In this document: positions 13,290 to 63,564 of the stretch, piece by piece
Numbering within the stretch: position 1 is the first letter of the stretch
Layout of the letters: every line of letters starts with the position of its first letter
NCBI GenBank assembly: GCA_013265495.1
Contig: MU058065.1
Span: 746,001 to 810,000, forward strand
Length of the DNA stretch: 64,000 nucleotides
Direction of reading: 5' to 3'
DNA from: Vicugna vicugna
Taxonomy: Eukaryota
Translations under genes and position numbers: made by a program
Notes under the pieces: model-generated
What the model was told of the DNA's origin: nothing
The model's database searches: none
The model's input: the letters and a program-made list of their open reading frames with translations, nothing else

Positions 13290-14790
13290 AAAATTTATTT
13301 TATTAAGACAATTTTTAAGAGCAGTGTTATGTTTGCAGCAAAATTGACAGAAAGGCACAGAGATTTCCTACAGACCCTTTGGCCCCAACACGTGCATGGC
13401 CTCCCCCATTGCAACATCCCTCACCAGAGTGGTACATTAGTTACAACTGATGACCCTCCATTGACACATCATAATCACCCAAAGTCCATAGTTAACATTA
13501 CTATTGACTCTTGGTATTGTACGGTCTATGGGTTTGGATAAATGTATAACGGCATGTACCTATCACTACAATATCATACAGAGTATTTTTACTGCCCTAA
13601 AAATCCTCTGTGCTTTGTCTATTCATCTCTCTTCCTTACCCCACCCCCAGGCAACCACTGACCTTTTCTTTACTGTCTCCATAGTTTTGCTTTTTCTAGA
13701 ATGTCATATAGTTGGAATCATACAATATTGCATTTTCAGATATGCACTTAAGATTCTTCTGTGTCTTTTCATAGCTTGATAGCTCATTTCTTTTTAGATC
13801 TGAATGATATTACATTGTCTGAATGGACCACAGTTTATATACTCATTTACGTACTGGAGGACTTCTTGGTTGCTTCCAATTTTGACAATCTTGAGAAAAG
13901 CTGCTGTACACAGTCAAGTGCAGGTTTTTGTTTGGAAATGATTTTTCAGCTCATTCGGGTAAGTACCAAGGAGCACATTTGTGAATCATGTGGTAAGAGA
14001 AGGTTTAGTCTGTAGGAAACAAACTGTCTTCCACAGTGGCTGTAACATTTTGCATTCCCACCCACAATGAATGAGAGTTTCTCTCTTGCTCCACACCCTC
14101 ACTAGTATTTGGTGCTGTTAGTGTTCCAGATTTTGGCCATTCTAGTAGGTGTGCGGTCGTATCTCATTGTTTTGGTTTGCATTTCCATGTTGACATGTGG
14201 TGTGAAGTATATCTTCATGTGCTTACTTGCCATCTGCATATCTACTTTGGTGAAGTGTCAGTTCAAGTCTTTGGCCCATTTTTTAAATGGATTGTTTGTT
14301 TACTTGTTGTTGAATTTTAAAAGTTCTTTTGGATACTAATTCTTTATCTAATGTGTCTTTTGCAAATATTTTCTCCCAGTCTGTGTTTTTCTTCTCATTT
14401 TCTTGAGATCATCTTTCACAGAGCAGTTTTTAACTTTAATGAGGTCTAGCTTATCAATTATTTCTTTCTTGGATCATGCCTTTAGCCTTGTATCTAAAAA
14501 GTTATTGCTATATCCAAGGTCATCTAAGTTTCATCTTATGTTATCTTTAAAGAGCCTTGTTTTACATTTAGGTTTAGGATCCATTTTGAGTTAATTTTGT
14601 AAAGAGTGTAGGTATGTGTCTAGATTCTTTTTCTTTCTTTCTTTTTTTTGGCAAGAAGTTGTCCAATGTCTAGCAGTATTTGTTGAAAAGACTAACTTTG
14701 TTCCACTGTATTGCCTTTGCTTCTTTGTCAAAGATGAGTTTATATTTATGTAGGTCGATTCTGGGCTCTCGATTCTGTTCCACTGATATA
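13290..14790 (-). mobile_element. L1 (L1MC-like) 3' UTR and ORF2 end
   Basis: TTTTTAAGAGCAGT...CAGCAAAATTGA...CACCAGAGTGGTACATT...CACCCAAAGTCCATAGTT (L1MC1-type 3' end), then antisense ORF2 text (TTGCATTCCCACC, TTTGTTGAAAAGACT). Confidence 0.85.
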
Positions 14791-20886: not shown

Positions 20887-21370
20887 TGTCGACTGAAATA
20901 AACGCACAGCCTAAAAGTTGAGAGGTATGTTTTATTTGGCGGACATTTCTGAGGACTCGAACTCCTTCGAGCCTGGGATGACAGCCTCTCAGATCGCCCT
21001 GAGGGACTGCTCCGACGAAGAGGCAGGAGCTAGCATGTATAGGAGCTTTACAACAAGACCAGGTAGTTGGAACATTAAAAGATTCCTTGTTAGCTAAAGA
21101 AAACCAGGCATCTCAAATTAAAGAATTTAGTGCTTTTCTATGTACCAGAGGAAGCAAGCATTTGGGCTCATTGAATTCATTTCTTTGACAAGCACTTAGC
21201 TATCTAGGGCTGGTATCCTGTCCTTTCTTATTCTGAGTCCCCTCACGGTGCACCATTGTGAGCAGCTGCAGAGGCCTGGGTTTGGGGGGGGGGGGATGGC
21301 AGCCACTGGTGACTTGATGGCTTTCGCATTCTTTGTTTAGTGATATGGTTTGCAGTATTTTTCGTTCACA
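20887..21370 (-). mobile_element. ERV1-type solo LTR, copy A
   Basis: TG...CA termini (TGTCGACT...TTCACA), antisense polyA signal TTTATT near 20931, 4-bp flanks CTGC/CTAC. It is the reverse-complement homologue of 22845-23311. Confidence 0.9.
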
Positions 21371-21688: not shown

Positions 21689-22313
21689 TGAGGCAGGAGG
21701 GAGGCAGGGCACAGCCATTCAAGGACTGCTACAGCAATTAACATCAAAATGGTGGAAGATTCAACCCCCAGCTGGCCTTGAGGCTCAAGATGATAAGAGA
21801 TTTAACTTCTAGTAGACCTTGAGCTTCATTATACACTCATTGTAATCTGTTAACATGGTGAATAACATGCCCACAGGCGCCATGGCAGTCCCAAGGCTAG
21901 CCACAAAAGGTCAAAGAGTGGGAAATGACCAACTTCCTGGGAATCCCAGCCCCTTCCCCAGGCTAGTCAGAATGGTCCTTCCTCTTATTACCAATAGGAA
22001 GCCACTGAGCCCATAAAAACTGTCAACACAGCGCCTTGCGGTCCCTGCCCTTCTCTCTCCCCCTCTTTGGAGAGGGCCCACATTCTGTCTGTGGAATGTG
22101 TACCCACTTTTAATCTGAACACCCAACCACCACACTTCGTGGCCTTTCTCTTGTCTTTCAATGTATCTCTCTGAATAGATCTACCTTTACTCAACTGTGG
22201 CTCACTCTTGAATTCTTTCCTGCGCGAAGCTAAGGACCCACACTTGGCAGGGCACGTCCCAGGGGCTCAGCTGAAGCCTGGGACACGGCCCCATATCCAT
22301 TTTTCCTGCATCA
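21689..22313 (+). mobile_element. ERV1-type solo LTR of a different family, with perfect TAAT TSD
   Basis: TGAGGCAGG...CCTGCATCA termini flanked by TAAT (21685-21688 and 22314-22317). It contains a CCAAT near 21991, a TATA-like CATAAAA near 22012, and a U5-like CTTGAATTCTTTCCTGCGCGAAGCTAAGGACCC. Confidence 0.85.
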
Positions 22314-22844: not shown

Positions 22845-23311
22845 TGTGAACGAAAATACTGCAAGCCATATCAGTAAACAAAGAATGCTGAAACCAAGTC
22901 ATCAGCAGCTGTTGCCACTCCCCAGTGAAGAAAGGCCTGCAGCCGCTCACAATGGTGCACCCTGAGGGGACTCAGAATAAGAAAGGACAGGATACCAGCC
23001 CTAGATAGCTAGGAGCTTGTCAAAGGAGTGAATTCAATGAGCCCAAATGTTTGCTTCCTCCTGTACATAGAAAAGCACTAAATTCTTTAACTTGAGATGC
23101 CTGCTTTTCTTTAGCTAACAACCTAATCTTTTATTGTTCCGACTACCTGGTCTTTGTTGTAAAGCTCCTATATAGTCTAGCTCCTCCCCTACCTCTTCGG
23201 AGCAGTCCCTCAGGGCAATCTGAGAGGCTATCATGCTGGGCTGGAAGGAGTTCGAGTCCTCAGAAATGTCCGCCAAATAAAACTTAACTCTCAACTTTTA
23301 GGCAGTCGACA
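22845..23311 (+). mobile_element. ERV1-type solo LTR, copy B (same family as copy A), with perfect GTGG TSD
   Basis: TGTGAACG...GTCGACA termini, AATAAA at 23276-23281, flanked by GTGG (22841-22844 and 23312-23315). Confidence 0.9.
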
Positions 23312-29770: not shown

Positions 29771-31029
29771 TATCTGATGGTATCCTATGTTTTATGGCCC
29801 ATAATCATATTGAATTGACTATAAGCATTACTTTAATAACTTAAGAAATCATCATTGTGAAAAAGATAGGGACTTACATTATATGTATAAAGCTAGCTGC
29901 CCTGAATTCTTGTATTTGCTCAAAAGTTAGGTACACCCCAGCTTCTGATAGCTCAAGTTCAGTCTATCTGCAACCAATATTTTTGACATAAATATTGAAA
30001 GCTATATAGTATGGCTTCCTAGTTTAGGAATTATAATATAAATTAGGTTCAATACTTGGAAATATATTGGAAGTATCAAAAGGATGCTACTATAGGAAAG
30101 CTTTAACTGCAAGTGAGTTCGGCCTCAAAGCCAGCAATACGGCAATGACTGAAAAGCTCTAGGATTTTCATCACAATTAAGCAGTTTTTTCTGTGTACTT
30201 TAAACCAAACACACACTGCCCACGAAGCCTCACAATAGAATAGAAACTACTGCTAATACCTTATTTAGGGACAAAATAAGTTTAGAAATAACTGTGGAAT
30301 ATGAGGAATATAAGCCTAAAATCACAGACAACTTTTACTTGTCTCCACCTGAGTTCTTAATTTTGTTACTTTATTGGTAGATTGTATCTTTCAACAACTT
30401 CTCATTTCTCTCTGGAGCGGAGTATTCTGAGCAGCTCCCACAAAGCAAATGGCTTGCTCTGAGTGGGTATAACACAAGCTGAGCTCCTAAAGAGGAGTTA
30501 GCTTGGATGAGCTTGAATATGTGAACACAAACTGGAATTAATAGGCCTGAAAGCAAGGGCGATATGACATCAATTTCTCCTTCAACTCCATTGTCCTGGG
30601 ATTCCATAAGACGTCACAGTCTTTGGATAAGGCACTGTGTGCATTTCTTCTCTATCTAAATATCCACTCGAAAAACAATATATTCTTTACCTGATGATAA
30701 AGGAAAACAGTAGCAGGGATCAAAAGGGAAGTAGAGATTTGCAATTTTCCAATGATGTTTCTTTCAAAAATCAGAACATACGCCTCACGGGAATTCAGAG
30801 CCACTTTGCTACTGAACGGTCTAGTACCTTGTGACAGTTTTCCTTCCAACGCCACTAAAGGTGAAATTAATATGTCCCCTCTTTGTCTGTCATAGTCTGT
30901 GATAACACTTCTGCTGCCGATATATTTTAACATTGTATTATAGTGGAAAACACCTCTGTCTCCTCGGGTAAGTGTTAAATTCCTAAAGAGTGGGGATAAA
31001 CTCATTTACCTTATTCCCGAGTGGATTTT

Positions 31030-33900: not shown

Positions 33901-34139
33901 TCATACACCCATCTAATAATTTTCGAGTCATATTTTTGATCTTTTGTTGGAAATGTGATTGACACACATAGCTCCTGACAAATTTTTGATAGTTTTAAGT
34001 ATTTTATTTACAGTGTATCTATGGACCTGAGCAAATACATTTTTTATGGCCCTGATGGGGTAGAAGTTAGCTGAGGATAATCTGAAATGAGCCATATTCA
34101 TTTTATTGCCAGAAAGAATAAATTTTTAAGATACAAGAA

Positions 34140-34256
34140 GCGTTGTGCTGGTAAGTGTTTAATAATGAGCTCTCCTGAGAGGTAAAAGAGAATCCCTGAT
34201 TTCCACGGTATAAATACTGTGGTCAGTTTCAAACTACTACTTGATATCTCTGACCA
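34140..34256. mobile_element. MER63-like (hAT) DNA transposon fragment
   Basis: GTGCTGGTAAGTGTTTTAATAATGAGCTCTCC...GATTTCCACGGTATAAATACT...TTTCAAACTAC resembles the MER63 end as recalled. Confidence 0.5.
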
Positions 34257-39139: not shown

Positions 39140-40155
39140 TATTTTTATTTTATTTTTAATTGATGCATTTAATTTTCAGAGCAGTTTTAAATTCACAGCA
39201 AAACTGGGCAGAAAGTGCAGAGGTTTCTTATACCCCTTGTCTCCAACATGCTCAAACTCTCCCACTTTTAACATCTCACACCAGAGTGTCATATTTGTTA
39301 CAATCAATTAACCTACACTGACATTTCTTTTTCACTCACAGTCCATAGTTAGTTACATTGGGGCTCACGCAAGACATTTGACAAATATATAATGATATGT
39401 ATTTACTATTTCAGTATATGTATTTACAAAATAGCTTTACTCCCTTGAAAATTCTGTGTTCTGCCTATTTATCCCACGTTCTCCTCTAAGCTATGGCAAC
39501 TACTAATCTTTTTAATGTCTGTATCATTTTGACTTTTCCAGAATGTCATATAATTAGAATCACATAGCACGTAGCTGTCTCAGATTGTGTTTTTTGATTT
39601 CGTAGTATGTATTTCAGCTTCCTCCATGTCTTTTCATGGCTTTGATAGCTCATTTCTTTTAGCACTAATATTCCATTTGTCTGGATGTACCACAGTTTAT
39701 TTATGCATCTACCCAAGGACATCTTGATTGCATCAATAATGAATAATGAATTGGTTTTGACAATAATGAATAAAGGTGCTATAAATATTCATGTGCAAGT
39801 TTTTGTGTGAAAATAAAATTTTCAGGCCATTTGAGTAAATACCAAGTAACACTACTGTAGGGTTATATGGTAAAGATATGCTTAGTTTTGTAAGAATCTG
39901 CCAACTGTCTTCCATAGTGGTCATATTATTTTGCATTTCCATCATCAATGAATGGTATTCCTGTTGCTTAATATTTTTACCAGCATTCAATGTTATCAGC
40001 GATCCAGATTTTTGCCATTCTAATGGATGTGTAGAGGTAACTCATTGTTTTAATTTGCAATTCTACAATGATTAATGATGGTTAATATCTTTTCATATGT
40101 CTATTTACCATCTTTATATCTCTTTCGTGAGATGTCTGTTCTTGTCTTTTCCCCT
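39140..40155 (-). mobile_element. L1 (L1MC-like) 3' end
   Basis: GAGCAGTTTTAAATTCACAGCAAAACTG...CACCAGAGTG...AGTCCATAGTT; minus ORF 39733-39990 resembles the ORF2 C-terminus (LPYNPTVVLLGIY). Confidence 0.85.
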
Positions 40156-40634: not shown

Positions 40635-43230
40635 TATATGCATGAGAGATACTAGTCTGTAGTTTTCCTGTGATGTCTTTGTCTAGATTTGGAATTATGG
40701 TAATGCTGGCCTCAGAGAATGAGTTACGAAGTACTTCCTAAACTTCTATTCTCTGCAAGAGACTGTAAAGGATTGATAACACTTTCTTTCTTAAATGGTT
40801 GGTGGAATTCAACAGTCAGATCATCTGGCCCTGGTACTTTCTATTTTGGAAGGTAACTAATTATTGGTTTAATATCTCCAATAAATATAAGCCTATTAAG
40901 ATTACCAATTTCTTCTTGTGTAAATTTTGATAGGTCTTCTTTTCCAAAGAATTGAACCATTTCACATGAGTTAAATAATTTGAGGACATAGAGCTATTCA
41001 TAATATTCCTTTTTTTATTGAAGTACAGTTACAGCATGTTAATCTCTGGTATACAGCACAATGTCCCAGTCATGCGTATATATACATATATTCATTTTCA
41101 TTACAGTTAACATTCCTTTATTTTCATTTTAATGTTTATGAAATCTACAACGATGTACCCTCTTTCATCTATAATGTTAGCAATTTGTGTCCTCTCTGTG
41201 TTGTCTTAGTTAGCCTAACTAGAAGTTTATTGATTTTATCAATCTTTCCAAGGACTGTTTTGGTTGTGTTAATTTTCTCTACTGATTTTCTGCTTACAAT
41301 TGCACTTATTTCTGCTCTATTTTTTATTTTCTTCTACTTATTTTGGGAATAGTTTCCTTTTCTTTTTATTTCTAAGTTTCCTAAGAAAGAAGCTTAGATT
41401 ATTGATTTCAGATTTTGCTTTTCTAATATGCATTCTATTATAAAGTTTCACCTAAGCAGTGTTTGGGCTGCATCCCACACATTTGATACATTATATTTGC
41501 ATTTTAATTCACTTCAAAATATTTTAAAAAATAGACTGAGATCTATTCTTTGACCCATTTGTCATTTAAAAGTGTCTTGTTTAATCTTCAAGTGTATTGG
41601 AATTTTCCATCTATCTTTCTGTTATTGATTTCTTGTTTAATGTCTTGTGGTCTGACAGCAGATTTTGTATGATTACTAGTCCTTTAAATTTGTTAAGGTA
41701 TGCTTTGTGGTCCAGAATGTGAACTATCAGTGAATGTTTCACATGAGCTTGAAAAGAATACATTCTGCTGCTGTTGGATGAAGTGTTCTATAGATGTCAA
41801 TTATAAGCACTTGATTGACGGTACTATTAAGTTCAATTATGTCATTACTGATTTTCTGCCTGACAGATTTGTCTGTTTCTGATAGAGGGATGTTAAATTC
41901 TTCAACTGAAATTGTGGATTCATCTATGTCTCCTTGCAGTTCTCTTAGTTTTGGCCTCACGTATTTTGATGATCCAGTATTAGGTTAATACATATGAAAG
42001 ATTATGTCTTCTTGGAGGATTAGTTACATGACTATCATTTGTAATGCCCCTCTTTATCTTTAATAATTTCTCTTGGTCTGGTATCTACCCTTTTTGAAAT
42101 TAATACAGCTACTCCTGCTTTCTTTTGATTAGTGTTGCTGTGGTATAGATTCCTCTGTCCCTTTGCTTTTAATCTCTATGAGTCTTTATATTTAAAGTGG
42201 GTTTCCTATGGACAACATACCTCCACTCTTGACAATCTCTTCTTTTCAATTAACATATTTAAACCATTGATATCTAAGGTGATTATTGATTAAATACATC
42301 TCCAGTAATATATAACTTATTTGTTACTTCCTCCATTATCTCTATTCTGTGATTACAAAATTTCAATGATTTAAAATTTTTGTATATATATATATTGTAT
42401 TTTTGTTATAGAATTTCTACTTGATTTTTAATTTTATTCAATTTTTCTGATGCACTTGTCTGTATTTGTCATTCATTGTGAGAAGACTTTTCTTCATGAT
42501 CTTTTGCATAGTTCCGCTTTAAAACTCTTTTCTAATAAGTCCAGCTTTTGCATCATCTCAGCAGTTGCTTTTGATTGTTTTTTCCCTTGTAATTGGTCAC
42601 ATTTTATTGATCCTTCAAATATTTAGTAATACTGAATTTTATCTTGGGACATTGTGAAAGGCATATTAGGTATATTCTGGTTGTAATCATATACATGTAC
42701 CTTTTGCTTGCTTGTTTTCTTTAACATGTAATTATATTGGTTGGATTCAAACTGTAAACTCTGTTTCTTGGCTGGCGATTCAACTTCAGTAATTATTTTA
42801 GATTTTAGAATATGCTCTATACTTACTTGTTTAGAGGTTAGCCTGAGTTGGGAAAAGTTTATGCCCAAAATTCGTAGCTTTCCCTCTGTGACTCATTCCT
42901 TTCTGGAACTCCTCCTGGTGATTTATCAGTAGCGACAGTTCACCAAATTTTTGTCCTATGGTTCAGGTCAGAAATTCTATGGGGGTTTTAGATGACCCAT
43001 GTGTAGATTTTACTCAGGTTAAAAGTTTTAAAAATTGGTAGCTTAATTGTTCGACTTCTTTCTTCCAAATGTCAACTTCCATCCAGAAATCATGTGCTTT
43101 TGTTCACTCTCCAGTGCCTTTAGGTCATTATGGGTTGTTTGCTTATGTTTGTTTGTTTATATTTTTGAAAATGTATAATTATAATAGATGTCAGCTCCTG
43201 TAAGAGCTGTTTGGTCATGCCAGCACTAAA
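40635..43230 (-). mobile_element. L1 ORF2 (endonuclease region) and upstream fragments
   Basis: Minus ORF 41739-41960 (ELQGDIDESTISVEEFNIPLSETDKSVRQKISNDIIELNSTVNQVLIIDIYRTLHPT) is a recognisable degenerate L1 ORF2 endonuclease segment. Confidence 0.85.
41013..41107 (-). mobile_element. Short lineage-type L1 3' end nested in an older L1
   Basis: TTTTATTGAAGTACAGTTACAGCATGTTAATCTCTGGTATACAGCACAATGTCCCAGTCATG; flanks TAATATTCCTTT (41001-41012) and TAACATTCCTTT (41108-41119). Confidence 0.75.
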
Positions 43231-43919
43231 ATCTCTGGTCAGACTATTTTATCCAGTTTTCTCAAGGTAAAGAAAAAAATAGCAATGATTCCAAATGATC
43301 CACTTACTTACAGTATCTAGAATATTTTAAAAATCAACTTATAATACCATTTTGTGTTTGACTCTGTAAGTAAATTATCCTTTAGAAGAAAAATTTAAAT
43401 CAAAATGACAAGTGCTTATAGCTTAATTCTAATATGTTATATCTAATTTTATCATTAACTAACAATATTTGTCTAATCACAATTGATGTTGTGCTCTAGC
43501 TATGAATTATCAACTACTATTTATAAGTAAGAAGTACAAACGGTTTTCCTAGTTACTCATAATCAGTCTTTGAAGCTCTTGCAATTAAATCCAGTGTTAT
43601 TATTAGCTTTTATTTGTTTACTTCATTTTGTTTTGTTGTTTAATGGTCTATATGCTAATGTGTGGACAATCGATTGCTTACCACACAAAAAAAAAGATGC
43701 ACAGTATTTTCAGAAAATCTTTATTAAGAGAATATAAACATATATTTATTGGTTTAATATGGTAGTAAACAGCACGGGCTCTGCAGTTAGATTTCCTTCT
43801 GATGTTTGATTCAAACAGCACTCTTCTCATCTATCTTCTCCAATCATTGTAATTTACATTACAACCAACAACCCTCCACTCCTTATTTACGTTCCTACTT
43901 CATCTTCTTTACACTTACC

Positions 43920-43963
<44 letters not shown>
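43920..43963 (+). repeat. (TA)n microsatellite
   Basis: Direct reading, with one interruption. Confidence 0.95.
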
Positions 43964-43965
<2 letters not shown>

Positions 43966-43979
43966 CACTTAATAGCAAT

Positions 43980-44425
43980 TGGTTCATAACAGCACTGTCT
44001 GTAATAGCTTGAAACTGGAATCCAACTTAAATGTCCATCTAGAGTAGAACAAATAAATACATTTTAGTAAACTAACATATTCATTCATTGTAATACCATT
44101 ACATAAATGAGAATGAATGACTGCAACATCACACAACATGGATGAAAATTAAAAACATTAAAATAAACATTAATTACAGTTTACAAAACAGGCATATGTC
44201 ATTTATGATTTGAGAAATGAATAGAGTGTTTATCCTTCAGAAGGGCAGACGGGCCTTGGGAGGCTATTAAGGGCCTTTATGGGGTACTGGCAATATTGTT
44301 TTTTGATCTGGATTTTGGCTGCACAGTTGGGTTCAATTTATAAGAATTCATGGAGCTCTACACTTATGATTTATGTACTTTTCTGTAAGCATGTTGTATT
44401 TGAATGAGAAACTTACCTGAAAAAA
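43980..44425 (+). mobile_element. L1 (L1ME-like) 3' end
   Basis: GTTCATAACAGCACTG...AAATGTCCATC...CAACATGGATGAA...TTGATCTGG...ACACTTATGATTTATGTACTTTTCTGTA. Confidence 0.7.
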
Positions 44426-45311
44426 CTAAGGTACAAACTGAAATGGCCTGATTGTTCTCTCACCTCAGTGACCTCTCACATGGACATAAATCCCAAATGT
44501 TATTTGATTTAGCTTTTCTCAAGAATATCAATAGACAGTTTACTCTAGTAGAACAAATAATTTCTTTTTTATTGTCACGCTGCTATCAATTATTTTTCCA
44601 TGTGTTTCTTATTATATTTAAGTAATAATTCATTCTTTTTTACAGAATGTCAAAATACCTTCTAGTAATAAAAACAAAACCAAAAGACAGATGGCAAACA
44701 ATAAAATTACAAACAAGAAACAGGTGAGGAAGAAAAGTGGCTGCCATAGAAAAAATTTTTCTCAAATATTTAAATTCTATTTTAATGTGTTAATAACAGG
44801 GTTTCTGCATGTAAATCAATATTCCATTAAATACTGACACAGCTAAATCACTCTCATTATATTGTGTTACACATTAAGATTGCCTCTATAATTTAATGAC
44901 CCTGCATTACTCTTTTATATGACTAATTATGCATTTTTATTTTTTAAACTCAAATTGTAAAGTTCATTAGGGCAGAGACTGGTATATGTGTGTGCCTGTG
45001 TCTGTGTGTGTATTTAATTTAATTTTTTTTTTTTGGTTTACTCAGCACTTAGCACTGTGTTATTCAACAAAAAACGAGTGGACAGATTCTCAGATACAGT
45101 AAGTTTCACTTCTCACATTCTCTCCTTTAGATTTATGAGTCTTAATTTCAAGAACCAAACAGGAAGTCAGTAGGTTAAAAAATAGAAAAATTGAATGTTT
45201 AGAATTCATTTTTATGATTTCTCTTCTCTCTGAAAATACTGCTTTTGGCCTGTGACCCCGTCTACCTCTAATAGCCATCTGTCCTTATAGATCTTCAGCT
45301 GTTCCAGCTAC

Positions 45312-48154
45312 AGATGGACAGCAGTTGCACAGATGCGAGATGGACAGCAGTTGCACATATGCACAGATGGACAGCAGTTGCACAGACGCACAGATGGACA
45401 GTAGTTGCACAGACGCGAGATGGACAGCAGTTGCACAGACACACAGATGGACAGTAGTTGCACAGACGCACAGATGGACAGTAGTTGCACAGACGCGAGA
45501 TGGACAGCAGTTGCACAGACACACAGATGGACAGTAGTTGCACAGACGCACAGATGGACAGTAGTTGCACAGACGCGAGATGGACAGCAGTTGCACAGAC
45601 ACACAGATGGACAGTAGTTGCACAGACGCACAGATGGACAGTAGTTGCACAGACGCGAGATGGACAGCAGTTGCACAGACACACAGATGGACAGTAGTTG
45701 CACAGACGCACAGATGGACAGTAGTTGCACAGACGCGAGATGGACAGCAGTTGCACAGACACACAGATGGACAGTAGTTGCACAGACGCACAGATGGACA
45801 GTAGTTGCACAGACGCGAGATGGACAGCAGTTGCACAGACACACAGATGGACAGTAGTTGCACAGACGCACAGATGGACAGTAGTTGCACAGACGCGAGA
45901 TGGACAGCAGTTGCACAGACACACAGATGGACAGTAGTTGCACAGACGCACAGATGGACAGTAGTTGCACAGACGCGAGATGGACAGCAGTTGCACAGAC
46001 ACACAGATGGACAGTAGTTGCACAGACGCACAGATGGACAGTAGTTGCACAGACGCGAGATGGACAGCAGTTGCACAGACACACAGATGGACAGTAGTTG
46101 CACAGACGCACAGATGGACAGTAGTTGCACAGACGCGAGATGGACAGCAGTTGCACAGACACACAGATGGACAGTAGTTGCACAGACGCACAGATGGACA
46201 GTAGTTGCACAGACGCGAGATGGACAGCAGTTGCACAGACACACAGATGGACAGTAGTTGCACAGACGCACAGATGGACAGTAGTTGCACAGACGCGAGA
46301 TGGACAGCAGTTGCACAGACACACAGATGGACAGTAGTTGCACAGACGCACAGATGGACAGTAGTTGCACAGACGCGAGATGGACAGCAGTTGCACAGAC
46401 ACACAGATGGACAGTAGTTGCACAGACGCACAGATGGACAGTAGTTGCACAGACGCGAGATGGACAGCAGTTGCACAGACACACAGATGGACAGTAGTTG
46501 CACAGACGCACAGATGGACAGTAGTTGCACAGACGCGAGATGGACAGCAGTTGCACAGACACACAGATGGACAGTAGTTGCACAGACGCACAGATGGACA
46601 GTAGTTGCACAGACGCGAGATGGACAGCAGTTGCACAGACACACAGATGGACAGTAGTTGCACAGACGCACAGATGGACAGTAGTTGCACAGACGCGAGA
46701 TGGACAGCAGTTGCACAGACACACAGATGGACAGTAGTTGCACAGACGCACAGATGGACAGTAGTTGCACAGACGCGAGATGGACAGCAGTTGCACAGAC
46801 ACACAGATGGACAGTAGTTGCACAGACGCACAGATGGACAGTAGTTGCACAGACGCGAGATGGACAGCAGTTGCACAGACACACAGATGGACAGTAGTTG
46901 CACAGACGCACAGATGGACAGTAGTTGCACAGACGCGAGATGGACAGCAGTTGCACAGACACACAGATGGACAGTAGTTGCACAGACGCACAGATGGACA
47001 GTAGTTGCACAGACGCGAGATGGACAGCAGTTGCACAGACACACAGATGGACAGTAGTTGCACAGACGCACAGATGGACAGTAGTTGCACAGACGCGAGA
47101 TGGACAGCAGTTGCACAGACACACAGATGGACAGTAGTTGCACAGACGCACAGATGGACAGTAGTTGCACAGACGCGAGATGGACAGCAGTTGCACAGAC
47201 ACACAGATGGACAGTAGTTGCACAGACGCACAGATGGACAGTAGTTGCACAGACGCGAGATGGACAGCAGTTGCACAGACACACAGATGGACAGTAGTTG
47301 CACAGACGCACAGATGGACAGTAGTTGCACAGACGCGAGATGGACAGCAGTTGCACAGACACACAGATGGACAGTAGTTGCACAGACGCACAGATGGACA
47401 GTAGTTGCACAGACGCGAGATGGACAGCAGTTGCACAGACACACAGATGGACAGTAGTTGCACAGACGCACAGATGGACAGTAGTTGCACAGACGCGAGA
47501 TGGACAGCAGTTGCACAGACACACAGATGGACAGTAGTTGCACAGACGCACAGATGGACAGTAGTTGCACAGACGCGAGATGGACAGCAGTTGCACAGAC
47601 ACACAGATGGACAGTAGTTGCACAGACGCACAGATGGACAGTAGTTGCACAGACGCGAGATGGACAGCAGTTGCACAGACACACAGATGGACAGTAGTTG
47701 CACAGACGCACAGATGGACAGTAGTTGCACAGACGCGAGATGGACAGCAGTTGCACAGACACACAGATGGACAGTAGTTGCACAGACGCACAGATGGACA
47801 GTAGTTGCACAGACGCGAGATGGACAGCAGTTGCACAGACACACAGATGGACAGTAGTTGCACAGACGCACAGATGGACAGTAGTTGCACAGACGCGAGA
47901 TGGACAGCAGTTGCACAGACACACAGATGGACAGTAGTTGCACAGACGCACAGATGGACAGTAGTTGCACAGACGCGAGATGGACAGCAGTTGCACAGAC
48001 ACACAGATGGACAGTAGTTGCACAGACGCACAGATGGACAGTAGTTGCACAGACGCGAGATGGACAGCAGTTGCACAGACACACAGATGGACAGTAGTTG
48101 CACAGACGCACAGATGGACAGCAGTTGCACAGACACACAGATGGACAGCAGTTG
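45312..48154. repeat. Minisatellite (VNTR-like), 26-27 bp monomers in an 80-bp higher-order repeat
   Basis: Monomers A=AGATGGACAGCAGTTGCACAGACACAC (27), B=AGATGGACAGTAGTTGCACAGACGCAC (27), C=AGATGGACAGTAGTTGCACAGACGCG (26). (ABC)x33 spans 45418-48057, with four monomers to the left and A,B,A plus a partial unit to the right: 106 full monomers. The ORF track repeats with exact 80-bp periodicity. Confidence 0.99.
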
Positions 48155-48964
48155 AAGGGTAATGAGTAGAGAACTCCTAGTTCAGTTACTTCCTAGTGAG
48201 GAAAGTAGAAGGAACGGTAGATCAATTAATTATATTGACTTCCTTAATGATCTGTCATTCCGGGCACATCCAGGTTTCCTGAGGCTTTCTTGCAAGACGG
48301 TTTCTTGTCTCCAGACATCTTCCACTCCTGGGCATCTTCCACCCCCATGCCTCTTCCTTTAGTCTGTGTTCACATGTCCTCATACATGGATTAGGGCTGG
48401 CCTCCATGATAACAGTTTTTTCTCTCTCTCTCTCTGTATTACATGGTACAGATGTCCACTAAATTAAATTTATGTCAACATTCTATTCATCGTGTCACTT
48501 CTGAGTTTAAAATCTTCCAAAGATTCCTGATGCTTGGAAAGTCACCTTATTTTCATTTGTTTCTCATTCAACGGTTTTTTGATTAAATATTTTCTAAGTC
48601 AAATTGTAGGCACTTTGCAAGGAGAGAATTAAGGCAGAATCTTTTCCTGCTATCAAATATCTAATAAGTCTAGTGGAAAAGCCTGAAGTTTGGTGGCCTT
48701 GATTTTTTTCTCCATCCATCTGATCAATGTTACTCCAAAATTCCCACCTCAATCTTATTTGTGCTTATCTCCATGCTTCTCAAGATATTCTGCATTCTGT
48801 TTTTGGTGCTTTCGCTCACGTTATCCTGTTACCTTACATGATCTCACATCCTTCATTCACCTCTTATATCCGTCTCAATCTTATCTTTCAAAGTCCCTAC
48901 TCTTCAGAAGGCATTCCTGGAATATGGTATTACTCATGAGTATTTCTTTGTCACGGTGGTGATG

Positions 48965-49495
48965 GTGGCTGTTAATCACTATGGCTGCATAACTAATTAC
49001 ATGAAAATCTAATGACTAAATCCAGACAACAAACTTTTATTATGTCACAATTTCTGCAGATCAGAAATGCACACACAATGTGCAGCCAATGTATCAGTCG
49101 AGGCTGCATTCTTGTCTGAAGATTTGACTGGGGAGGATCTTCTAAGCTCATTTACATAATTATTGCAGAATTTACTTTCTCACGGAGCGTCTATTGGTCA
49201 GAGACTTCATCAGGTCCTTGCCACTGGGCCCTCCCCATAGAGCATCTTAAATCCTGGTAACTTGTTTCTTCTGAGCAAGCAAGTAGGAAGGCAAGAGAGT
49301 AATGGTGGGGAGAGAGTGAGCGCTAGCAAGACAGAAGTCATGGTCTTGTTTATTGCATCATATTCCGTCACTTTTCCTGTATTCTATTCATGTGAAGCAA
49401 GTGACTAGGTACAGACAATACTTGAAAGGAGGAGATTATACAAAGGCATGAATACCAGGATGTGAGATCACTGAGAGCCAACTATCTACCACAGT
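48965..49495 (-). mobile_element. MaLR (MLT1-like) LTR
   Basis: TGTTAATCACTATGGCTGCATAACTAATTAC...CACTTTTCCTGTATTCTATTCATGTGAAGCAAGTGACTAGGT...ACAAAGGCATGAATACCAGGA...CTACCACA. Confidence 0.7.
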
Positions 49496-49529
49496 GATGA
49501 TGATGATAATAACATAAGACCATCAGTAA

Positions 49530-49745
49530 CAATTACAATTATAGTTTACATTGATTGAGCACTAATTGTTTTCCAACACTGTGTCATAGGCTTTGTATCT
49601 ATTATTCATTTAGCCTTTGAGTAATTTTATAAGACAGATGCTATCATATTTCCCATTTCACTGATAGAAAATTGAAAAATGGAAGATTATGTGACTTGTC
49701 AAAGGTCTTACTTGTAAGATCATGTAAGAGCCTGTTTCTAATGAT
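49530..49745 (-). mobile_element. MIR SINE
   Basis: ACATTGATTGAGCACT...CCCATTTCACTGATAGAAAATTGA...GTGACTTGTCAAAGGTC. Confidence 0.7.
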
Positions 49746-49924
49746 TATGGCATATAAATGAGCACAAAACACAAATTATAAACCATCAATTCAGTAATTA
49801 ATTTTTACTCCACCATCATTTTTTTCCTTATTTCATGCAAGCTAGTTACGCTTTCTGAATGTAATGCAATCTTTTGGAAAGAAGCATATTATATATATTT
49901 ATTCTATATCTATTTCATACAGGC

Positions 49925-50181
49925 GCTGTCCTGTGTTAAGCAGGCCGCTTTGGTTGCCAGTAACAAAACTCCAATTCAAAAAGGCTTAAGTAAAACGGAA
50001 ATTTCATGACTCGTGTAACATACTCTCCTCCATACCCTGAATCACTCTTCTTTCTTGAGTGCTTGCTTCAATCTCAAACAGGGTATCTCTCCACACTGTG
50101 GCCCTTGGAAGTTCTAAGCTTTGTTTTCCCATTTCAGAAACTTTCGAGGAAACAGAGCTCAGTTCAAATAAGTGCTTGGAA

Positions 50182-52160: not shown

Positions 52161-52921
52161 TGACCTAAGGAAGATCTTACAACTTATAAAGAGGCTACAA
52201 TCATGCATGAAATTATACAGTACACAGATGTTTTGCTCCCATTTTTTGGGTGTCTTATCTAAATCATTATTTGTAAGTGAATTAACAGATAATAATCTGT
52301 GCTCCAAATTGATACATACTGGATTAGTAATTTACAGCCTCTATGTACTGTTTTGGGTCTGTGATATAATTCTGCAGCTGAAAGATTACACGAATAGACA
52401 TTAATGGCAAAGGTTAGGTCACATTTTTAACACTGAATCAAATTAACCAAGATGAGTAAGTCAAGCCTTATCTCTATTATAATTGGATGCTATTATTGTC
52501 ATTTAGGTCAAAATGTCTTAACAGTAGTTGTATTTCTTGGCATTAATGTTGATCTTTCATACTGAGTGTTTGCCTTCACTTGTATTAGAATGTGTTTATT
52601 GAATTCAGGATCTTGCACTTGTTCCATCATTTGGAATGTGAGACAAGATACATTTAAGAGCTGCACCTGCTATGAAAGCTTTAGTCACCCCTGACTGCTG
52701 ACTTAGTTTCAGTTTCACAGCTACATTTCTATTTGTGAATATGTAAATACTATAATTCAACGAGGCTTTTGACAAGGTTTGCATTTGACTTTTAATTTAC
52801 TACCCGGATTATTACATTTCCCTAATCTCAGTGTCCTAATCTGTAAAATAAAGGGGTATGACTTGATTTCTAGTTTCTCCTCATCTGAGAGTCTCTGGAT
52901 CTGTTAAGGGATGGGGGAAAT

Positions 52922-52987
52922 TATTAGCTACAAGCATAGTCAAGCATATTAGCTATAAGCATAATCAAATTATTAGCTACAAGTATA
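52922..52987 (+). repeat. Short tandem repeat, about 2.7 copies of a 24-25 bp unit
   Basis: TATTAGCTACAAGCATAGTCAAGCA / TATTAGCTATAAGCATAATCAAAT / TATTAGCTACAAGTATA. Confidence 0.85.
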
Positions 52988-53030
52988 AATTGGTGACAGT
53001 AATGTTATATAAAGAGTGCATTCAAATTTT

Positions 53031-56000: not shown

Positions 56001-58648
56001 ATTTAGCTAGTGGTTTGTCAATTTTGTTTATCTTAAAAAAAAGTAGTTCTTAGATTTATCATTTTTTTCTATGTGTGGGTTTTTTGTTTTGGGGGGTTTT
56101 TTGGTCTCTATTTTATTTACTTCCGCTCTAATCTTTGTTACTTTGTTCTCTTTGCTAACTTAGGGCTTCAATTGTTCTTCCTTTCAAATTCCAGGAGATA
56201 TAAAGTTAGATCGTTTATCTGAGATCTTTCTTTTTTCTTACCAATGGACATTTCTCTCCACAAACTTTCCTCTTAGGACTTCTTTCTGTTGTATTCCATA
56301 AGTTCTGATATGTTGTGTTTCCATTTTCACTCGTTTCATAATTTTTAAAAAAAATTCTCTTTTAATTACTCTTTGACACATTGGATATTCAGAAGTGTGT
56401 TGTCTAACTTCCACATATTTGTGAATTTTCCAGTTTTCCTCTTGTTATTAATTTCTAGGTTTATACTGTTGTGGTCAGAAAAAATACTTGGTTTGACCTC
56501 AGTCTTTTTATATTTCCTAAGATTTGATTTGTGACTTGTCATATAATCTATCCTGGAGAATGTTCCATGTGTACTGGAGAAGAATGTGTATTCTTTTGTT
56601 GTTGGATGGAATGTTCTGTATGTGTCTGTTAGGTCCAGTTGGTCTAAAGTATAGTACAGGTTTAATGTTTCTTTATTGATTTATGGTCTGGATGATCTAT
56701 ATATAGTTGGAAGTAGTGTATTGAAGTCTTCTATTATTACTATATTGCTGTGTTGTCTATTTTTCCTTTCAGATCCATCAATATTTCCTTAATATATTTA
56801 GAAGTTCTGATGTTAGATTTATATTTATTTACTATTATACCTTATCGATAAATTTACCCCTTTATTATTATATAGTGACTTTTGGCTTTTGTTGGATATT
56901 TTGTATTAAAGTTTATTTTGTCTGATGATTGTATGGCTATCCTTGCTCTCTCTTGATTTACACTTGCATGAAATATCTTTTTCTCAGCATACAGTTGGAT
57001 CTTTTTTGTTGCTGTTCATTTGTTTGGTTTTATCCATTTAGCCACTCTGTGTCTTTCATTAGAAAATTAAAGCCATTTACATTTAGAGTAATTATTAATA
57101 AGTAAGTACTTATCATCTTATAAATTCTGGCTGTTTTATAGTTCCCTTGTCCTTTTTTCTTCTCTTGCTGCTTTCCTTTGCGAAATATTGATTTTTCTAT
57201 AAAGATATTCATTGATTCTTTCTCTTATTTTGTGTGTGTATCTACTGTAGATTTTTATTTTATGGTTACATGAGGCTTACATAAAGCTTCTTGTAAATAT
57301 AACAGTAACTGTTTGATTCTTTTGGTTCTTTTTCATTATATCTATCTCTTTTTTTACTTCTCATTTATTTCTGTATTGTTTTCCTGATTTCACTGAACTG
57401 TCATTCCATGTTTTCTTGTAGCTCATTGAGATTTCTTAAAACATCTATTTGGAATTCTTTATCAGGTATATCACAGATATAGCTCCATGTTTTGGGTAAT
57501 GATTGTGATCCCATAGTAGTATGATTTTTTTCTAGATTCTCATGTTCCTTCAAAATTTTTATTGCTGTCCTCACATTTCAAGTAGCCATCACCTCTCCCA
57601 GGCTTTCCTAACTGACTTTGGAATAGAAATAGCTTTCATCAGCCCTACTAGGGATTCTGAGATTTTCTCAGGCCATTGCTATTTATGCCTGCCCCATGTG
57701 CCTTGCTCCCTCTTGTTGTAGAATTCTTAAGCTAGTATACCTCCTCTTGATCCTGGCAACAAGCAGGGTGGGTACTGACAGCCTCCCTTCTGCTTTTCTA
57801 AGGGTGGAGTAGTGCTCAAATGTGGACTCTCCCTGGCTGCAGATTCAGGCTGCTTTTCTGTGCATGTTCACTAGCTGTCTGCGAAAGTTCACTCTCATCA
57901 CCACTGGACATCAGAGGGAGCCAGCCCACAGGGTGGGGGTGTGGGGTGTGGGTCAAGTGCACAGAGCATCAGGAGTGCCTGGGGGCCAGCTGACATAGCT
58001 TCATGCAAGACGTCTCAGGTGGCTCATGGATGGGCTTCTTGATTGAATCTGCACTGCAGTTAGTGGGATCCTTGCCCACTTAATGCCCTCTGAGAGTCCT
58101 ATCTGCCACTCCCTCAGCTTCTTCCTGTTCCTCAGTCATGCAGCACGTTACTCAGTATGCTGAATGGTATAAAAGATAGATGGGCCTCTTTGGAAGTATC
58201 TCACACAGCTGGGGAAGCAGGGCACTAATTCATACATTCTCACTTTCCCTCTCAGGAGAAATCTTGAACAGAGAGGGTCTCTTGGCACTGAACTGTGCTA
58301 CCCAGTGAGGGGGCAATAAGGTTAAAGCGAAGTCTTGCTTCTTACTCTCTCCCGTGTGTTCAAACTCATCTTTTTTTTCCCCCCCTCCAAAACCATGCTA
58401 GAACCTCTTCACTGAAAACCTGGACTTCCACAAAGTTTCTCTCATCTGTGGGTGACTGTTTAAGACAGTATCCTTCTAGCGCTCCCAGGCTATGATTGAG
58501 AAGGGTTGGAGCTGGTTCATAGTCCACTGCAGGGCTTACAGTCAGGACTGAGTTACCCACTGCATGGACAGGAGAGACTCTCTGGGTCCGCAAGCACATA
58601 GTGCTTGATTCCACAACTCCCACAAAGGCACCTTTGTCAATGGACACC
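53031..58648 (-). mobile_element. Long degenerate L1 (3' UTR, most of ORF2, GC-richer 5' region), with probable TSD
   Basis: Minus ORFs 53569-53844 ([21 protein letters not shown]), 53828-54019 (TSLIIREMQIK) and 57030-57212 (LIITLNVNGFN, ORF2 start) are L1 ORF2 motifs. A polyT tract lies at the left end, and TCAAATTTT occurs at 53022-53030 and 58649-58657. Confidence 0.85.
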
Positions 58649-60745: not shown

Positions 60746-63564
60746 GAGCAACAGAAAACAGCTTGAAGAATTTATTGGAGTTCTTTACCAAAGCTGGAAA
60801 GGAATATGTTAGTTGTCACCAACAGAAGAAACCAAAGAGTAAAAGTGTATTTTTCAACCAGCATCCATGTTTATTAAGTGTTAGGAAATAGACAAAATTA
60901 CAGCCAGATAAACTCTAGAGACTTGATAAGCAGGACCCAACAGCTTCTGAGGGGTTGGGACAAGATTCTTTTTGGATGGGAAATGGGACTGGTAGATTAT
61001 TCCCTTATGATCTAAGTTAGCAAGGCCTGGTGATGGCTTGAAAGAAGGATAATTAATAGCAAAAATTTGAAGGTGAAAGGAAGGTAACCAACAATCGAGC
61101 TGCCAAGAATGGGATAGGATGAACCGTAAGTATCTTATCAAGATTCTTTAAGACTTTACTGCAGAGAAGCAAAATGGTCATTCTGTCAGTGGTGGCTTTT
61201 TTGTGGGGTCTTAGGCAAGAAATATAAGTACAACAATAACAGAGAAAAATGGGGGATGGGTGATGAGAGAGAAGAGGAGAGAGAAAAGAGGGCATACGAA
61301 GGAAATAGGATTTAAAAAGGAGAATGTGTGAAAGAAGAGAAATAAAAGATAATATATATTAAAAAGGATTAATGGAAGAGTTAAAAAATGGTGGGGTAAA
61401 GGGGGAGAGAGAGAGAAAATGAGAGAATGAGAATAAAACAAGAGCTTTGATGAAGTCAGATTTACAGATTTTTAAGCAAATGCTTGATGCTTGAACTCTG
61501 AATTTTGTGGAACTCAAACTAATTCTCTCTTCTTAGCTACCATCTAGGTGTAATAATGGCTTGCTCTATATCACAGGATAAAAAGAAAAATCAGATTAAC
61601 ATTTTTTAAAGTGAGTTTTATCTTGGCTTCAAACCTTGTCTCATAAACTAAAAATTCCATGCAAATATCTAAAATTTACTACAAAAAGCAGTGTTATAGT
61701 CCTGTTCATAAAGCATTAACTTAATAAATCAATTTTATGTATTTATTTTTGAACTCTGGCTTTTGATTTACTAAAATCATTTTGATTTTTTTCACATTAA
61801 AGTTGCTTCTTAAAATTCTTTATTGGCGGTATACTTTTAAAATACTTAAAGAATATTTAAAGGAAGTTTTGATTTTTTTTTATTATAGAGACTTTAATTT
61901 TGAAATCCCAGAAAGCCAATTTAGGTAGGTATAGGACATTTAACTGCTCATACTAAACTGCTTTAAAATCACACTGTAATGATTTATAGCAGATAGATAA
62001 ATGCTATTTATACAGAAAGGGATATCAAATGATAAATTCTGCTCATTTACTGTTTATCCATGTCTCCCATTTGCCTGTACAAAAGGCTTCTCTTTTTTTT
62101 CTTTAATGACTAAATATAGTCCAGTATTTCATTTTATACTTATGGAAAGTAGAATAATTAATCCAGTGTAACTTTCCTTAGTGACAAAATAATGACAAAA
62201 TTTCAACTTGGTGACAAGGAAAACAATCTAAATCTAAATGTATCTAAATTCCTATTTTAACATCGAAATATCTACAGTAATTATGAAAAATTCTGAAGCC
62301 ATTTTTATCTTTCATCTATGTGAAACCAAATATCCAGATATTTTCAAATGTTAATTGAATAGATTACATGTTGGAAAAAATCAGGATTAAGTCTTTAATA
62401 ACCTCTTATGATCTATTCCAATTAGTTAATTTAGCCATGAATATAATCTCAAAGGATTAGATAACTAAAAATTTGTAGAGAATCCTATTTATCATTACTT
62501 AACACTTGTCACAGTGTCAGTCATTTCCTTAAACTTTTTCAACCATCTTTATATTCTAATAACGGTTTTAAGACTGAAATGAATATTTTCCCTGGTTTAT
62601 TTCTTTTTTCCCCATCAAGGTTTTAAATAACTTGAAAAAGTCTGTCTTCATCATCCTTCCTGAGCATTTGGGATCACTGCTACAGCCTCTATGCTGAATT
62701 TAAAAGTCCCCATACACACGTAGATGAATATTACTATTCCACAAAATAAATTTTTAAATATGCATGTCTTTTTCATGACTGTCACTCTTGAAACTGTTGA
62801 AGGCCCCATAAGCTTGGTGACTGAGGCTGTTATTCTTAACACGGAGTTAGAATGTTGTAAACATGAAATTTTATACAATAATGAAGTTGAAATTGGAACC
62901 AAGTGATGGCGGAAGCTTGGAGATTGGCTTGAATTAAAGTGCTGAAGCAGGATGCAGAAGTACCAATTCCAAGAATTTCGTAAGTGGGAAGAGAGGAAAA
63001 TACACGTGAGAATAAATATAAACTGCCACGAATCAGAACCTGCAAAACAAGAGGCATAATGTCAAAGTGGAATTTGATTGGACTGGCAAACGTACCATCT
63101 CCTCGGTATTAAGTAACATTCTCAGCTAGTGGCCCAGTCCGACTCAGTGTCAAACTTCAGCTTGACCTTTCAAGAGCCTGGCTTGCTATGATTTATTCTC
63201 AACCGTGGACTTGAGACCACAGAAGGACTTAAGAAAATCTACTTCCTTTCTTAGTTTCCTGGCAAAATTGCATTCGAGTAAGCCCAAGTACAGAGCACAT
63301 ACAGACTCTTCTACTTTCCTTTCATTTTTTCAGGAATTTGTTTTTTATTTTTTCCCCAAATCCTTACATTCTGGAGAATGAGGCTAATTTCCAGTAAAAT
63401 TCCCATGTACTTTTATTCAGATGTGTTTATATTTTTTGGGGGGGGAAGGGCTTATTGGTTGGAATTAAGAACAGTTGATGACTGTGTTTCTTGCAGTGTT
63501 TTCTCAAAGACTTAAGAAACAGTGGTTTTCAGATTTTCTTATTCTGATACAACATTACAGATAT

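Follow-up and report, generated by a model that had tools for sequence, protein, structure and literature searches.

The array at positions 45312..48154 of the window (the 64,000-nt stretch of Vicugna vicugna DNA analysed here) is best read as the product of block amplification within a small minisatellite rather than a satellite system. With slightly more confidence than doubt, we regard it as a non-coding, probably single-locus minisatellite that has grown by amplifying a block of monomers and has no function of its own. Cutting the array at a common 10-mer yielded 106 full head-to-tail monomers, each 26-27 bp long, and a partial one of 16 nt, together spanning 2,843 bp, just as a preliminary description had counted them. 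The feature is unstranded and has 52% G+C, against 30-39% in its neighbourhood. The units fall well inside the range of about 9-100 bp by which minisatellites are defined (PMC2599865), and they are of six types. Types A (27 bp, n=35), B (26 bp, n=34) and C (27 bp, n=34) make up the bulk, whereas D, E and F occur once each. Read from left to right, the order is D, E, F, then B-A-C thirty-four times, then A and the partial monomer, so that the repeating trimer measures 80 bp (27 for A, 27 for C and 26 for B).

The left edge (45312..45391, unstranded) consists of the unique monomers D (45312-45337), E (45338-45364) and F (45365-45391). The perfect 80-bp higher-order core (45376..48121, unstranded) spans 2,746 bp and 34.3 periods with zero mismatches and contains 103 CpG. 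At the right edge (48112..48154, unstranded), C is followed by A with B skipped, then by the 16-nt partial monomer and abruptly by unique sequence. TRF reported the period of 80 with 35.5 copies, 99% matches and a score of 5618, the period of 27 with 106.9 copies and 90% matches, and additionally periods of 8 and 19. We compared each monomer label with the one three places further on and found identity in 99 of 103 monomers, while in 20,000 shuffles of the labels the number of such matches averaged 31.8 and never exceeded 52. The order of the monomers is far beyond chance. The order is fixed, and identity at lag 80 is 99.1% across the array versus 2-4 edits between the monomers of a trimer, as in a higher-order repeat. 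The preliminary description had given 33 identical consecutive trimers with variants and order breaks at the edges only. We count 34 trimers read as BAC and 33 in the other two rotations, so the lower figure reflects a different rotation, and all departures from the B-A-C cycle are indeed confined to 64 nt at the left end and 33 nt at the right end. The pattern is thus confirmed for the sequence as assembled. Separately, we noticed that the eight bases with which the array opens (45310-45317) recur in inverted orientation at 45275-45282, 27 nt upstream of the array start.

Length and purity are the most striking traits of the array and also the least verified ones, and both may partly stem from assembly. 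Somewhat doubtful in our estimate, yet a serious contender, is the explanation that a real trimer was extended in part by the assembly into a perfect run of 2.75 kb. In that case a short-read gap filler or consensus step would have followed the majority B-A-C cycle until an estimated gap was filled, losing inner variants and determining the copy number on the way. The set of words in a 34-trimer array is already matched by 2 trimers for words of 28-100 nt, by 3 trimers for words of 127-150 nt and by 11 trimers for words of 800 nt. Reads of up to 150 nt therefore cannot separate 3 from 34 trimers, which means that short reads fix the trimer order and the edges, and leave length and purity free. 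Moreover, at 64 and 33 nt, every departure from the cycle is close enough to unique flank for a single short read to reach it. For llama, guanaco and vicuna, the published assemblies rest on Illumina reads put together with SOAPdenovo (PMC7331169), and VicPac3.1 drew on short, Sanger and 454 reads and used PacBio reads to build scaffolds (PMC6598621). Since short-read words are ambiguous here and short reads underlie the older assemblies of South American camelids, length and purity may be assembly-made. Overfilled gaps are on record for one long-read gap filler (bioRxiv 10.1101/2021.02.26.432990).

Several observations weigh against an assembly origin. The window is free of any N, and variation restricted to the edges is also expected from, and was produced by, the biological toy model described below. 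With words of at least 28 nt, the C-to-B junction must be present in the reads, so the trimer could not be invented. With words of up to 27 nt it could be, but shorter cycles of 27, 53 and 54 bp would compete with it. Our literature search returned no report of short-read fillers making perfect minisatellite runs, and the available part of PMC6009670 holds nothing on repeat over-filling. We also searched sequencing runs with the interval 43000-50100. Among the 24 runs listed, 18 contained 0.82-0.91 of the sampled words, under six closely related organism labels and from nine studies, and no RNA run was among them. The run with the highest share may come from the source sample itself, and two runs with small shares (0.17 and 0.13) were left out of the comparison. 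This result supports the region and not the array specifically, as the array region accounts for 2,873 of the 7,071 word positions but for 230 of the 4,428 distinct words.

Turning to block amplification and the monomers it would have started from, we found that the 27-bp monomer consists of three ACAG-led pieces of 8, 11 and 8 bp. The six types differ at five variable sites and lie 1-5 edits in 27 apart. F is the hub of their network: its edit distances add up to the lowest total, and a single change separates it from A and likewise from C. We infer that D, E and F at the left edge are a relic of the array as it was before amplification; judged from their sequences, the edge monomers trace a local ancestry centred on F, and probable ancestral monomers have been kept at the edges. 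The preliminary description had attributed several monomer differences to CpG decay, which would fit two of the five sites (a change from C to T in D and E, and one from G to A in A, if these directions are right). The other three sites are a non-CpG C/T difference splitting B and C from the rest, a transversion in E, and an indel-plus-substitution, the last of which shortens the end of B and D and makes a CpG. In addition, all four combinations of states occur in 2 of 10 site pairs, which implies that, before the trimer spread, monomers exchanged sequence or sites changed more than once.

With 33 periods taken out, the array shrinks to 203 bp, or roughly seven and a half monomers. Degenerate monomer copies were absent from the flanks, where 103 of 1,000 and 972 of 1,000 shuffles scored equally well. 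The older array was therefore small. An older monomeric array that diverged before one trimer was amplified had been proposed earlier; the sequence supports divergence first and the amplification of one three-monomer block afterwards, but the "array" amounts to only about 203 bp and has no degenerate copies past its edges.

These clean flanks and abrupt ends, together with the abundance of old repeats in the neighbourhood, could also be taken to favour a different origin, in which the array belongs to a dispersed family of minisatellites or satellites, or has grown from a transposon fragment, its trimer having been seeded elsewhere. We consider such an origin quite improbable. The edge monomers, with their local ancestry around F, argue against it, and across the 64-kb window we detected no second copy of the array and no further monomer-like sequence when as many as 6 mismatches in 23 nt were allowed. 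Units are far larger in the 13 alpaca satellites tabulated, 2.3-8.6 kb where known, and four 10-mers of our unit are absent from the alpaca satellite supplement, whose consensus sequences were compared over their first 400 letters (PMC13751797). VpaSat01-13 resemble the array as tandem repeats of camelid genomes, some of them interstitial and variable in copy number, but their large units of about 1.8-8.5 kb form arrays visible in whole-chromosome dot plots and by FISH, and no 27- or 80-bp unit is listed in the available part of that source (PMC13751797). With its unit of 27 or 80 bp the array falls outside VpaSat01-13, a comparison that covers the first 400 consensus letters and leaves room for an internal sub-repeat. 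The preliminary description had not recognised the unit as a described satellite, and this agrees with the lack of a match among the alpaca satellites visible in that source (VpaSat01-13, PMC13751797). A full-text search for four 10-mers of the unit, with Repbase, Dfam and most subscription papers outside its scope, returned only papers unrelated to repeats by title. The locus itself appears undescribed. Viral, metagenomic and prokaryotic collections gave 0 exact matches to a 23-nt pattern, by which an origin in those sources was rejected; the result says little on mammals.

For block amplification itself we propose the following course. The 27-bp monomer was built from the three ACAG-led pieces, which can be seen in the sequence. 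About seven monomers then diverged by five changes and were shuffled, in keeping with the four combinations seen at two site pairs. One B-A-C block of 80 bp would have been duplicated. From that point, according to our computation, misalignment by 80 bp would offer long perfect homology, whereas a shift by one or two monomers would offer at most 28 bp. Unequal sister-chromatid exchange or synthesis-dependent strand annealing would gain or lose whole trimers, the core would grow pure and long, and the ends, unable to misalign, would retain the old variants. Alleles are predicted to differ by multiples of 80 bp, and the array is a candidate for the hypervariable VNTR suggested in the preliminary description. 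In the array as assembled, the longest exact run is 2,666 bp at lag 80 and 28 bp at lags 27 and 53. Off-register exact homology of no more than 28 bp would lock exchange to the 80-bp register, and the contrast between 2,666 and 28 bp implies that, once two trimers exist, homology-dependent exchange should move whole trimers.

We simulated this behaviour with a neutral toy model that tracks monomer labels at arbitrary, unfitted rates, with 400 runs per setting; most arrays were lost or did not grow. Among arrays that grew to 106 units, we counted those in which a single pure block of 2-6 units made up at least 90% of the length. When homology was required, 67 of 94, 59 of 86 and 55 of 80 grown arrays ended in this state (181 of 260 together). 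In sharp contrast, none of 83 did so without the homology requirement. The block was a trimer in 9 of 94, 7 of 86 and 10 of 80 grown arrays, about one in ten. What the model shows is only that selection would not be needed for pure blocks to form. A bolder scenario, which seems to us unlikely, takes the array as real in its assembled form and still segregating in South American camelids as one-trimer alleles of about 200 bp versus alleles of about 34 trimers, with few intermediates. The higher-order repeat would then have been born in a single burst, by rolling-circle copying of an 80-bp circle or by repeated template switching, and not by stepwise exchange, and roughly 70 E-box sites and 100 CpGs dropped beside an exon would make a natural on/off regulatory allele.

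The purity of the core allows a bound on its age. Under a star-like model, zero differences over 2,746 bp limit divergence to 0.11% (95%), a figure that falls to 0.065% when CpG sites receive an assumed tenfold weight. Using a rate of 7e-9 per generation and 5-year generations (PMC7331169), we obtained, under the star-like model, a last homogenisation less than about 0.8 million years ago without CpG weighting and about 0.5 million years ago with it. What is bounded here is the time since the array was last homogenised, as opposed to the time when the trimer arose, and the bound collapses if the purity is a product of continuing turnover or of the assembler. For the very recent amplification proposed in the preliminary description, this provides an upper bound only.

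Growth by amplification of a higher-order block is an ordinary mode for a minisatellite and has been described already. In the human TRCompDB catalogue, block mutations were recorded at 29,964 of 2,221,932 tandem-repeat loci and ascribed to unequal crossover or other non-slippage events (bioRxiv 10.1101/2024.08.07.607105). As in the array, variant motifs there are duplicated as one block and give rise to higher-order repeats in an ordinary euchromatic repeat; the human events, however, were compared between alleles, whereas the array is known from one assembled allele. By analogy, the array may sit at the long, pure extreme of block mutations of the human type. Variant telomeric units of Arabidopsis offer a second parallel, with two to four units forming a block that is repeated many times, and local homogenisation with higher-order repeat formation has been called typical of non-coding minisatellites (PMC11406999). 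Blocks of variant units in many copies are common to both, but the Arabidopsis units are 7 bp long, telomere-derived and found at plant chromosome ends, while the array has a 27-bp unit and is mammalian and apparently interstitial. Human MSY1 also comes close, with variant units of comparable size and long pure blocks, among them one of 42 identical units in a 77-unit allele, and its intra-allelic turnover is ascribed to strand annealing between misaligned sister chromatids (PMC2599865). Unlike the array, which is built from a trimer and folds worse than its shuffles, MSY1 is haploid and has single-type blocks with predicted hairpins (PMC2599865).

The array differs more clearly from two other classes of tandem repeat. 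Minisatellites of the MS32/CEB1 type have a G-rich chi-like core, a PRDM9-type motif or G-quadruplex potential. Searches of the array for chi-like and human PRDM9-type motifs gave 0 hits, and it lacks any GGG run; camelid PRDM9 may differ in its specificity. Alpha-satellite has 171-bp monomers, its centromeric arrays are far longer and bordered by long monomeric stretches, and it has a kinetochore function. The likeness of the array to it lies in the pattern only, namely diverged monomers, near-identical multimers and variant monomers at the edges. The array, by comparison, is 2.8 kb long with a unit of 27 bp, keeps relics of 3 and 1.6 monomers at its two sides, and has no centromeric context that we could see; it lies in unique and interspersed-repeat DNA, with no degenerate monomers past its edges. 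Alpha-satellite higher-order repeats are mentioned in bioRxiv 10.1101/2025.06.15.659631. The preliminary description had called the array a miniature version of satellite higher-order-repeat evolution. That comparison is apt for the pattern and fails for size and flanks, and the process has already been described in euchromatic repeats (bioRxiv 10.1101/2024.08.07.607105, PMC11406999).

Nothing points to a function for the array. We found no Rfam family or tRNA in the window, and within the array no splice-donor consensus, poly(A) signal, GGG run or G-quadruplex motif. Instability driven by hairpins was rejected, as 240 nt of the array fold at -9.3 kcal/mol, weaker than 200 of 200 shuffles. A coding repeat of the mucin type was rejected as well, given that the 80-bp unit shifts the frame with each copy and the plus strand has stops in all frames. 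On the minus strand all three frames across 45285-48192 (-) are open for 957-965 aa, yet lack an upstream Met; they stay open because the short unit has no stop triplet on that strand, and the one array frame scanned from it had no Pfam match.

A regulatory role, in which the array would act on a host gene or on a nearby exon-like segment as a dose-tunable E-box cluster or a methylated CpG block, is in our judgement very unlikely. The hexamer CAGATG, which we take to be a bHLH-type E-box site, occurs 72 times in the 2.8-kb array and 38 times in the other 61 kb, and the 8-mer ACAGATGG 71 times in the array and 3 times outside. CpG density is 36.6 per kb in the array versus 6.9 outside. Intronic VNTRs that alter expression or splicing do exist (PMC12776774, PMC13196383). 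These motif counts, however, are not independent evidence, because amplification copies whatever motifs the unit carries. The array also lacks the splice-donor, poly(A) and G-quadruplex signals named above, and homology searches with the nearby exon-like segment and with frames of the window revealed no host gene.

The segment concerned is an unconfirmed exon-like stretch of 78 nt on the plus strand (44646..44723), proposed by a rough splice-site model. It is bounded by AG and GT, has two open frames and ends about 590 nt short of the array, which would be intronic if the segment is real. A homologue was found neither at E of at most 10 among 8 candidates nor among 1.84 billion representatives, both weak tests with a low-complexity piece of 26 residues. 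Together with two further exon-like segments on the plus strand (34113-34150 and 61889-61924), it shows good AG/GT ends, the first two of the three not joining directly in frame; the three may possibly belong to a fast-evolving gene with long introns. We scanned 83 frames and 10 queries, one of them the array frame, against Pfam. This covered 93 of the 188 frames of at least 62 aa outside the array region, give or take short pieces, with most frames left of position 30,000 excluded, and no curated cut-off was reached. For a 136-aa frame, all scores returned by the ESM Atlas were below 0.8. A weak match to PF03372 (endonuclease/exonuclease/phosphatase) at 56369-56680 (-), with E=0.021 and below the cut-off, lies in a long T-rich stretch and is consistent with an old L1 fragment.

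The wider window is mammalian-type DNA with 29-42% G+C outside the array, no N, and a complement of microsatellites and old interspersed repeats. Among the latter is an inverted pair of about 450 bp (20906-21361 and 22853-23306), 77-94% complementary in pieces and with its arms about 1.5 kb apart; these arms and the segment between them at about 21690-22310 resemble, by eye, solo LTR fragments. Diverged copies of one interspersed repeat end lie about 25.85 kb apart at 13404-13850 and 39261-39712, with 74-83% identity in pieces. At 52918-52988 there is an imperfect 25-bp tandem repeat with 2.9 copies and 79% matches, which can serve for comparison as an unamplified minisatellite seed.

Whether the array is real or assembly-made, current understanding is unchanged either way. 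If it was made by assembly, it would be a caution against dating or interpreting perfectly pure minisatellites in gapped assemblies without reads. If it is real, it would be a small, clean model of how a higher-order repeat starts, one that fits within a single long read. Relatives and breeds could then supply intermediate alleles, and the array would be a candidate size marker for camelids.
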